22,219 nt of DNA from a virus (taxonomy: Duplodnaviria > Heunggongvirae > Uroviricota > Caudoviricetes): IMG/VR virus record IMGVR_UViG_2681813227_000011. One strand, 5' to 3'. This document shows positions 6,153-8,121 of this stretch, one piece after another (within the stretch, counting starts at the first letter, position 1; each line of letters starts with the position of its first letter). The notes under the pieces were generated by a model that was not told where the DNA came from, did not search any database, and saw only the letters and a list, made by a program, of their open reading frames with translations. A program made the position numbers and the translations under genes.

Positions 6153-6178
6153 ATCCCTGAAACCTCGGTTTACGGGAT
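6153..6178. other. gix-like recombination site (left, invertase-proximal)
   Basis: ATCCCTGAAACCTCGGTTTACGGGAT: inverted counterpart of the site at 7579..7604 with central AAACC-TC-GGTTT. It is ~55 bp upstream of the invertase start and directly follows an in-frame stop. Confidence 0.65.
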
Positions 6179-6532
6179 ACGGTAAACAGGGCCGCGAATG
6201 CCCTGCCATCAAACGGTACGGCTGTTGCAGCAAGCAGGCTGGCAAATGCCCGCAGAATCAATGGTGTCGCCTTTGACGGCACGCAGGATATAAACATTAC
6301 GTCAGGAATGCCGGAATCAACGGCCAATCAGCGTTATGTTACAGGGGTAAGACTGGGAGCGCAGGCATTAAGCGGCGGACTGGAATATAATTACTCCCTG
6401 TCATCAGGAAATGTGATTACCGGTTTTAAGACTGACGGAGACTGGGAAATGCGTGGTGGTGATGACCGTGTTTATTACAGACAGATACAATATTGTATTA
6501 ATGGGCATTGGGTATCCGCTGCAAGTATTTAA
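6161..6532 (+). CDS. Silent alternative tail-fibre C-terminal cassette (Sv'-like; no start of its own in this orientation)
   Basis: Plus-strand frame translates to NLGLRDTVNRAANALPS...RYVTGVRLGAQ...YYRQIQYCINGHWVSAASI, parallel to the C-terminal 127 aa of the expressed fibre (NLGLRETVNKAADALPS...RYVQNVQLGAQ...YYRPVQIYINNAWRTVSSV). A TGA sits immediately upstream. Confidence 0.7.
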   Translation, partial: NLGLRDTVNRAANALPSNGTAVAASRLANARRINGVAFDGTQDINITSGMPESTANQRYVTGVRLGAQALSGGLEYNYSLSSGNVITGFKTDGDWEMRGGDDRVYYRQIQYCINGHWVSAASI

Positions 6533-6653
6533 TTAACGGGGGCATAGCACACAGCAGCCAGCATCTGAAATATGCGTTATTTCAGACAAGCATTGCCTGT
6601 ATATGGCGATAGTATTATTCCTGTTTTTATCATTGATTTACATGGTGATGTTT

Positions 6654-7175
6654 ATGCAACTGATTAATGTCAAACGATATTACCCGAAAGACAAACCCTA
6701 TGGTGAGGATGTTCAGTATTTCCAGAGTGAGGACGGAAGGGATTTTTATGAATCTATCCCGCTTTTTACAAAGAAATACAAACTCTGTATTTCGCCTGTA
6801 ACGGGTATTATCTGCTCTGTTGCTGAAGATGTCTCTGCTTTATATCCGGCAGGTTTTACTGTTGTTGAAGTGGACGAACTGCCGGAAGGTGTGAATATTG
6901 ACGGTAACTGGCAGTTTTCTGATGGCCTGATATCAAAGGTGCCGGTAAACTGGAAGACGGTTGCTGAAAAGCGTCGCTCATCGCTGCTCCAGGAAGCCAA
7001 CGAAACCGTGGATGACTGGAAAACAGAATTAAAACTGGACATGATTAGCGATGAAAATAAATTACAGCTGACGCGCTGGATGGCGTATATCCGACAGCTT
7101 AAAGAAATGCACTTTAATGATATTGCCAGTGAGGGGCATTACCAGGCGATTCCCTGGCCGGAAAAACCGGAATAA
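6654..7175 (+). CDS. Tail-fibre assembly protein (Mu U / lambda Tfa family), co-oriented with the silent cassette
   Basis: ~174 aa from MQLINVKRYYP. The C-terminus LTRWMAYIRQLKEMHF...AIPWPEKPE follows the Tfa pattern as I recall lambda Tfa. The track start at 6603 adds an implausible hydrophobic leader. Confidence 0.7.
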   Translation: MQLINVKRYYPKDKPYGEDVQYFQSEDGRDFYESIPLFTKKYKLCISPVTGIICSVAEDVSALYPAGFTVVEVDELPEGVNIDGNWQFSDGLISKVPVNWKTVAEKRRSSLLQEANETVDDWKTELKLDMISDENKLQLTRWMAYIRQLKEMHFNDIASEGHYQAIPWPEKPE

Positions 7176-7180
7176 TTCAG

Positions 7181-7203
7181 AGGGTGCATTCAGCACCCTT
7201 TTC
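7181..7203 (+). terminator. Hairpin plus T-run between the convergent Tfa and tail-fibre genes
   Basis: AGGGTGC-attca-GCACCCT-TTTT in the 34-bp gap between the Tfa stop (7175) and the tail-fibre stop (7210). Confidence 0.5.
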
Positions 7204-7209
7204 TGTGGT

Positions 7210-8121
7210 TTACACTGAACTTACCGTTCTCCAGGCATTATTAATATAAATCTGAACCGGGCGATAATAGCCCCCACCGATATTGTCCGCAGACCGGGAG
7301 CCGGTTTCCTGCACGTTAATACCGGAAAGCATACAACCGGAAGGTGCGCTGTAATTCCATGACATTTCATTGCCTCCGGGTGAATGATAGCTCTGTGCTC
7401 CAAGCTGAACATTCTGTACATACCGGCCATCTGCGGTTGACTGCGTCATTCCTGACGTGATGTTGATATCCAGCGTTCCGTCAAAAGGAACACCATTAAT
7501 ATTTCTTGGGGTGGCGAGTCTGTTTGCTGCCACGGCGGTTCCAGCCGATGGCAGGGCATCAGCAGCCTTATTTACCGTTTCCCGTAAACCGAGGTTATCG
7601 ATAAAGGTTCCTTTGTCCTGGATATCCGCGCCATTCTGGTCCCTGCGCAGGTAACGGTTATCACCTTCGCTCCTGCTGTAAACATCCAGATTATTACGGG
7701 CGGTTTCCGCATTCTCCAGGTCGGCAAGGTTCTGATCCTTCGCCAGGGCATTAACGTCAGCGGGACCAAGACTGTTTTTTGTGGCAAGCGTCCCCAGACC
7801 AAGATAACCACGGGCCAGACGCTGGGCTTCCGCACCGGCATCAGCAATTTCTTTCAGGTTGTTTTTCCGGGAAAAGGCATTCGCAGCGATAATGGCTTTA
7901 ATGGACAGCGTAAGCTGGTTTAACTGCGCCTTATCCGGCTGAATACTGGCTTCAGCCAGAATATTCAGCAGTTCGGCCTGGAGAATATTCAGCCAGTCCT
8001 GACCAATCCAGCTGATACCTTTTTGTCCGTCACCTTCGGTAAACCAGGTGGTGGTATTACTCTGCGCCGGAGCCAGTTCAGGCATATTCGCCACGCCGGA
8101 ATTATTATCAACATGGAACAT
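7210..8121 (-). CDS. Tail fibre protein (Mu S-like): constant N-terminal part plus currently fused variable C-terminus
   Basis: 303 aa from MFHVDNN; its ATG overlaps the upstream stop (TAATG). The C-terminal 127 aa lie inside the invertible segment. The track ORF extends to 8175 in frame. Confidence 0.8.
   Translation of the reverse strand: MFHVDNNSGVANMPELAPAQSNTTTWFTEGDGQKGISWIGQDWLNILQAELLNILAEASIQPDKAQLNQLTLSIKAIIAANAFSRKNNLKEIADAGAEAQRLARGYLGLGTLATKNSLGPADVNALAKDQNLADLENAETARNNLDVYSRSEGDNRYLRRDQNGADIQDKGTFIDNLGLRETVNKAADALPSAGTAVAANRLATPRNINGVPFDGTLDINITSGMTQSTADGRYVQNVQLGAQSYHSPGGNEMSWNYSAPSGCMLSGINVQETGSRSADNIGGGYYRPVQIYINNAWRTVSSV
7579..7604. other. gix-like recombination site (right, inside the tail-fibre gene)
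   Basis: TTCCCGTAAACCGAGGTTATCGATAA, about 22 of 26 matches to the Mu gix site as I recall it (TTCCTGTAAACCGAGGTTTTGGATAA). Lies at the constant/variable junction of the fibre. Confidence 0.7.

Follow-up and report, generated by a model that had tools for sequence, protein, structure and literature searches.

An invertible tail-fibre segment with two alternative tips and a single, probably shared, Tfa chaperone gene in Sp18-type Mu-like prophages of Escherichia coli

The virus record IMGVR_UViG_2681813227_000011, a stretch of 22,219 nucleotides that we call the window, carries at positions 6153-7604 an invertible tail-fibre segment in which two alternative fibre tips are accompanied by only one gene for the chaperone Tfa. 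To judge from its sequence, the segment is a functional switch, presumably of host range, and a miniaturised orthologue of the G segment and gin of phage Mu; it probably operates with one Tfa shared by both tips, the gene being co-transcribed with the fibre in one orientation and transcribed on its own in the other. Under this reading, the Gin-like invertase would recombine two gix-type sites, and inversion would join the 175-residue constant part of the fibre to either of two tips of ~125 residues, both of them served by the single Tfa. With the genes in the order fibre, tip, tfa, the late operon would extend through fibre and chaperone gene alike; in the arrangement present in the window, tfa and the silent tip fragment would form a separate unit ending at an intergenic hairpin. 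We infer that one Tfa folds both tips and that tfa has a promoter of its own, and a need of the tips for this Tfa is proposed from homology and from the pairing of such genes in other phages. A more far-reaching version, in which a generalist Tfa has its own stationary-phase-responsive promoter, active in the lysogen and used whenever tfa comes to lie on the strand opposite the late operon, and folds at least five tip families, its supply being uncoupled from the switch, is put forward more tentatively.

The features concerned are listed below, with their strand where they have one (aa, amino acids; dN/dS, ratio of nonsynonymous to synonymous substitution rates).

5538-6098, minus strand: gene for a Gin-like serine DNA invertase, 186 aa (Pfam Resolvase, E=1.4e-51, and HTH_7; annotated as recombinase)
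6153-6178: left gix-like site, centre TC at 6165-6166, aligned to the right site and to Mu gix
6161-6339: left inverted-repeat arm, coding for the N-terminal 55-60 aa of a tip; 75% complementary to 7418-7596
6161-6532, plus strand: silent tip Sv', 123 aa, family A, promoterless (from translation; dN/dS 0.18-0.30)
6533-6653, plus strand: spacer of 121 bp separating tfa from the silent tip, where a tfa promoter may lie (from sequence comparison)
6654-7175, plus strand: tfa, 173 aa, homologue of Mu U (Pfam Caudo_TAP, E=1.9e-18; 5yvq_B, E=1e-15)
7179-7201: GC-rich hairpin with a T-run, terminator-like, between the convergent tfa and fibre genes; also present in the relative L047
7210-8121, minus strand: expressed fibre gene, 303 aa by the PGAP start at 8121 (open reading frame and translation)
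7210-7596, minus strand: expressed tip Sv, 128 aa, family B, inside the segment and without a co-oriented Tfa (dN/dS 0.04-0.22)
7418-7596: right inverted-repeat arm, coding for the N-terminal 55-60 aa of a tip
7579-7604: right gix-like site, centre TC at 7591-7592, aligned to the left site and to Mu gix
7597-8121, minus strand: Sc, the constant N-terminus of the fibre, 175 aa, encoded beyond the segment (from alignment to Mu S)
8121-8681, minus strand: gp48, just ahead of the fibre gene in the direction of late transcription

Crossover sites, fibre tips and inversion

The two 26-bp sites lie in inverted orientation around a segment of 1.43 kb and have in common a perfect core of 17 nt (AACCTCGGTTTACGGGA) as well as the central dinucleotide. 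In reverse complement, the right site (TTATCGATAACCTCGGTTTACGGGAA) matches Mu gix (TTATCCAAAACCTCGGTTTACAGGAA) at 23 of 26 bases with the same TC centre, and both sites fall on NLGL codons of the fibre, which is the position of gix in Mu S. An earlier note, made from the sequence alone, had called the sites gix-like, and the alignment places them in the gix family. Alignable inverted sites with identical centres, together with an adjoining invertase of the Gin/Hin/Cin/Pin subfamily (75% identical to Mu Gin and 72% to PinE of e14), are the arrangement of the DNA inversion systems of that subfamily. From the 26-bp sites inward runs an inverted repeat of 179 nt with 75% complementarity; the repeat had been noted before, with a size of ~150 bp and an identity of ~80% that our measurement replaces.

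As in Mu-type G segments, the constant N-terminus of the fibre is encoded outside the segment and in-frame alternative C-termini inside it. Fibre residues 1-198 align with residues 1-191 of Mu S (5yvq_A, E=4e-48), and matches to that chain cover Mu S residues 1-191 and 435-503; the stretch in between, ~192-434, is missing from the tips of the window. The translations agree with the description in the earlier note of an expressed variable tip on the minus strand and a promoterless alternative on the plus strand, the latter preceded by an in-frame TGA at 6158-6160. Sv resembles the tips of P2-like H proteins and of SfMu gp52, and Sv' is 57% identical to the last 70 residues of Mu S. Between themselves, the two tips are 57% identical overall and 39% identical over the last 70 residues, and their sequences make it plausible that the two orientations recognise different receptors. 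Both end in the motif YYRP.Q..ING.W...S, as do Mu S and S'.

The orientation of the segment was scored in 5,426 complete E. coli genomes, counting matches with at least 80% query cover to the native sequence and to an inverted version built in silico by exchange at 6165/6166 and 7591/7592. The native arrangement was present in 183 genomes and the flipped one in 27, which puts the chaperone-convergent orientation at 87% of the assembled genomes, with a bias from the clonal sampling of O157 and other Shiga toxin-producing E. coli (STEC). Two genomes (H33 and H34) match the flipped sequence at 99.9% in a single ungapped piece, and the annotation of a flipped relative (L004) reads Sc joined to Sv' and followed by tfa. 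In flipped relatives, the two sites have traded their inner half-sites, next to the core, as an exchange at the site centre would produce. Even within O157:H7, both orientations are found (H2 and H35). The segment thus inverts, as the earlier note had proposed, both orientations with central exchange being documented across genomes rather than within one culture. The predominance of the convergent arrangement also suggests that fibres made in that state infect these hosts, an argument weakened by the clonal sampling. In prophage Sp18 of strain Sakai (L130; sites at 2549 and 3942) and in the relative L049, the centre is TT at both sites rather than the TC of the window and most relatives; because the change is concerted, the sites stay compatible and inversion is still possible.

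One chaperone gene beside two tips

The product of tfa is a member of Caudo_TAP (PF02413), scoring 67.3 bits against a cut-off of 22.1. When the whole window was searched by tblastn with five Tfa queries, this was the single site found, with no second Tfa, and the remaining open reading frames of the segment have no family match, in agreement with the earlier statement that there is one Tfa only and that it converges on the expressed fibre. A 98-aa open reading frame lies antisense within tfa (6746-7042, minus strand); it has no credible family match and is probably spurious. The stop codons of tfa and of the expressed tip are 34 bp apart, and a terminator-like hairpin separates the convergent genes in every module type, although in modules with D-type tips this position is taken by another hairpin, encoded on the opposite strand. 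In the flipped orientation, tfa lies directly downstream of the fibre and is co-oriented with it, across an unusual gap of 121 bp; in the orientation of the window it is not. The spacer before tfa comes in three unrelated types within the family, with lengths of about 55-121 bp (121, ~95 and ~55), and the distance between tip and Tfa is ~20 bp in non-invertible relatives. A co-oriented Tfa for each tip, the rule in Mu-type G segments, is found neither in the window nor in any of its family relatives.

This layout with one Tfa is shared by all thirty-odd related loci, from viral contigs and genomes alike. Their tips fall into five families, of which A, C and E are always co-oriented with tfa and B and D always convergent; the four alleles of the Tfa N-domain, highly similar by eye, are each paired with several of the tip families. 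Pairwise dN/dS is 0.04-0.27 among convergent tips, with synonymous divergence (dS) of up to >1, 0.11-0.46 among co-oriented tips and 0.09-0.23 for tfa; purifying selection thus acts on every part. Broken tips occur in two relatives: the co-oriented tip is frameshifted in L067 and the convergent one has an internal stop in L072. Such decay is sporadic, strikes either position and is not the rule.

Some relatives have lost the ability to invert. In these locked variants, most of gin, the left site and the silent tip have been deleted, with a remnant of the gin 3' end still visible, and fibre and tfa are permanently convergent. They number 7 among the 5,426 complete genomes and another 7 among the viral contigs (L054-L058, L060 and L065), and all carry a B or D tip and an intact tfa, which differs among them mainly at synonymous sites (dN/dS 0.10-0.23). 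The prophage of strain CI5 (L128, with the locked region at 20073-20931) is complete, contains no annotated pseudogene and has split a xanthine dehydrogenase gene beside xdhB, as a recent transposition would.

These data bear on the proposal of the earlier note that one Tfa was lost and the switch is half-degenerate, which would leave only the order fibre, tip, tfa infectious and make the other orientation a dead end. Two Tfa genes are indeed the state in Mu, in e14 and in most other Gin-linked segments sampled, and the decayed tips of a few relatives would fit. Low dN/dS in the convergent tips at considerable divergence, a layout kept across five tip families and four Tfa alleles, the excess of genomes with the allegedly dead arrangement (183, compared with 27), the concerted TT centres of Sakai that keep inversion possible, and complete prophages locked in the "dead" orientation and transposed into host genes all contradict it, however, and we regard the proposal as very improbable.

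The other explanation offered before was that the expressed tip needs no chaperone. In its wider form, the convergent tips (B and D) would fold and trimerise without Tfa, which would be required for A, C and E alone; this agrees with the strict confinement of B and D to the convergent position, with the absence of a co-oriented Tfa for these tips in every variant and with the failure to identify a tfa promoter in the convergent orientation. It is made unlikely, however, by the company that similar tips keep elsewhere. In ~35 distinct non-invertible relatives, P2-like and others, a Tfa follows ~20 bp after a B-like tip, and in SfMu, where gp52 is B-like, the next gene is a U-like Tfa. Furthermore, the convergent tip ends in the same motif as Mu S; a Pfam scan of the 128 residues of Sv gave no domain, and nothing suggests a built-in chaperone; and the locked variants, which express a B or D tip alone, still keep tfa intact. 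Mu S itself depends on U. The structure of Mu S has been solved in complex with U, as 5yvq.

The same comparison allows the Tfa of the window to be placed. The N-terminal half of Tfa in the ~35 non-invertible relatives is 62-72% identical to that of the window, and the last 70 residues of their tips are 42-68% identical to family B and 18-40% identical to family A. The A-like tips of Mu S and PSP3 H are paired with Tfa proteins only 34% identical to that of the window. By association, therefore, the N-domain of the Tfa in the window would be of the class that usually accompanies tips like the expressed one, opposite to what the gene order suggests, and this counts both against a chaperone-free B tip and against the earlier assignment of Tfa to the co-oriented silent tip. 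B-like tips are, on the other hand, found with two Tfa classes; class of Tfa and class of tip are thus loosely coupled, which makes a generalist chaperone plausible.

Loose coupling also favours a further alternative, in which the fibre of the convergent state is folded by Tfa in trans, supplied by other prophages or by sister copies in the other orientation, and no dedicated promoter is needed. STEC carriers typically hold many lambdoid prophages with tfa genes. A phage cannot depend on the prophage content of each new host, however, and its neighbours stay repressed unless they are induced with it; in CI5 and similar strains, which are not STEC, the locked variants retain a tfa of their own, and the array data described below indicate that the resident tfa is itself transcribed. 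We consider supply in trans improbable, if somewhat less so than the degenerate switch.

Transcription of tfa in the convergent orientation

A shared Tfa would have to be made when tfa points away from the late operon, and published data on this come from Sakai, whose reference orientation is convergent. On 70-mer arrays hybridised at ten growth time points (PMC2241611, Additional file 2), tfa (ECs4990) rises from -1.08 to +1.31 log2 on entry into stationary phase, and the silent tip fragment (ECs4991) runs parallel to it, from -0.93 (lowest -1.20) to +1.06. The fibre gene beside tfa, ECs4989, stays between -0.45 and +0.46 log2, and ECs4993 is nearly flat (PMC2241611). In the lysogen, ECs4990 and ECs4991 are induced ~4-5 fold and cluster by expression with stress genes (PMC2241611). 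Such behaviour agrees with a transcription unit of silent tip and tfa that stands apart from the late operon, and it hints at a growth-phase-regulated promoter inside or beside the segment. At the deletion junction of the locked variants, a promoter-like ATGATA-17-TATAAT (10 of 12 positions) points at tfa; as a promoter for the gene in those variants, it is suggestive only.

Several observations weigh against a shared chaperone with a promoter of its own. Sigma-70 scans of the invertible forms gave no convincing promoter upstream of tfa or of the silent tip, the hits not rising above shuffle expectation, and the spacer is entirely different between module types, with no conserved regulatory element. 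The array data come from one study, describe a stationary-phase lysogen and not lytic growth, and derive from a culture in which the orientation of the segment was unmeasured. The purifying selection on tfa in the locked variants could date from invertible relatives, the gene having since moved in by recombination. To these comes the clonal bias in the genome counts.

Other candidates within the spacer were considered and dropped. Spacer identity of ~90% between tfa alleles that are 64% identical in protein looked like evidence of a conserved tfa promoter; the 5' end of tfa is conserved as well, as expected of a mosaic recombination block, and the spacers of the other modules are unrelated. 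A possible box for the C activator (TTAACGGGGGCATAG, 6533-6547) resembles the reverse of the C site of Mu Pmom (TTATGCCCCAATAA); it was rejected as it is unconserved among relatives and has a poor hexamer at the expected -10 distance. A perfect dyad, CTGAAAT-N7-ATTTCAG (6565-6585), is unique in the window at zero mismatches, and the fold of the spacer (z=-1.18) is not significant; nor does the spacer have a match in Rfam.

Prophage context, related systems and implications

Its gene content and sequence identify the window as an Sp18-type Mu-like prophage of E. coli O157 and other STEC. Over the 2.9 kb around the segment, chromosomal prophages of many O157:H7 strains and further STEC match it at 98-100% identity, and Pfam and annotation show Mu-like genes on its flanks (gp48/YmfQ, baseplate J/gp47, gp46, tape measure and com/mom). 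Followed along late transcription on the minus strand, the genes come in the order gp48, fibre, convergent tfa, silent tip and invertase. Between the invertase and com/mom lies a gene of 679 aa (3399-5438, minus strand), at a place where Mu has nothing, with a SASA carbohydrate-esterase domain (E=5.5e-12) and a C-terminal DUF6645 (E=4e-70); its alleles range from 60% to 99% identity among otherwise similar prophages, and its domains suggest that the product may be a tail-associated or surface-modifying enzyme. Further away, the heptamer CCTGAAA occurs three times within 42 bp (21508-21549, minus strand) upstream of a protease/scaffold gene, likely a late-promoter region; the whole window has 12 copies against 3.25 expected. 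In the CI5 prophage, RefSeq places a "tRNA-OTHER" (35974-36053) between a virion morphogenesis gene and one for head morphogenesis; the window stops just before the matching position, and an ARAGORN scan of it gave no tRNA.

The closest known system is the G segment and gin of Mu, with counterparts in D108, in SfMu and, as B-pinB, in Shigella boydii. It occupies the same place in the genome, after gp47/gp48 and before gin and com/mom, and shares with the window a fibre N-terminus homologous to S, gix at the same NLGL codons, an invertase that is 75% identical and a Tfa homologous to U. The segment of the window differs in its size, 1.43 kb instead of 3 kb, in tips of ~125 instead of ~320-335 residues, in having one Tfa where Mu has U and U' (SfMu also has two), in the asymmetric arrangement of its tips with a spacer of ~55-121 bp before tfa in the family, and in the 679-aa DUF6645/SASA gene between gin and com. 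The P segment of e14, with pinE, is likewise built of a serine invertase, gix-like sites within the fibre gene and alternative C-termini, but it has a Tfa for each tip (tfaP and tfaE) and a phage backbone unlike that of the window. The C segment of P1, with cin, is a serine-invertase system of the same plan, with gix-like sites in the fibre gene, alternative C-termini, a Tfa per tip and a different backbone. The earlier note had set the single Tfa against two in Mu, P1 and e14; in Mu and e14, two were indeed found. Carotovoricin Er, a tailocin on a P2/pyocin-like backbone, reportedly swaps only the C-termini of a fibre by means of a segment of ~0.8 kb between 26-bp inverted repeats, with no chaperone pair inside; Nguyen and colleagues are said to have described it in 2001. 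It would be an earlier example of a segment departing from the two-Tfa rule.

Sp18 of Sakai belongs to the same prophage family and has the same layout, with ECs4989 as the fibre, ECs4990 as tfa, ECs4991 as the tip fragment and ECs4992 as the invertase; it differs from the window in a family C silent tip, a different spacer and the TT centres. As early as 2009, the Sp18 region was described as invertible and its genes as unlike those of Mu (PMC2669165), and the layout with a single Tfa has been present in the Sakai annotation since then. Our search of the literature found no paper discussing the single chaperone. A long-read-confirmed inversion of similar size in CP066032 (Milman et al. 2023) proved to be a canonical Mu-type segment with two Tfa genes, and the phase-variable "Mu prophage" of enteropathogenic E. 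coli E2348/69 (PMC4272514) was looked for and not located. Among segments of other families at 80 loci with related invertases, 13 have two detectable Tfa genes, five have one and one has none. L193, which is among the five, has an open reading frame of 90 aa, unrelated to Tfa, after its second tip. Single-Tfa segments elsewhere are not clean precedents, and the survey cannot gauge how rare the layout of the window is.

Gin-type inversion of a Mu-like fibre is well known at its core, and the gain from the present case is incremental. The prophage is common in O157 and other STEC, however, and assemblers and annotators split or mislabel the region: in carriers, the fibre is annotated as "hypothetical protein" and the silent tip as a pseudogene. 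Invertible fibre segments are textbook cases in which every tip is held to require a chaperone to itself. A widespread and selected variant with one chaperone for two tips, and for five tip families over the whole prophage population, bears on the specificity of Tfa, is relevant to tip swaps in the engineering of phage and tailocin host range, and bears on how a gene within an invertible segment stays expressed in both orientations. If the more far-reaching version holds, no invertible fibre system would have been shown before this one to work with a shared, self-promoted chaperone, and nature would here demonstrate a tip-generalist Tfa N-domain.

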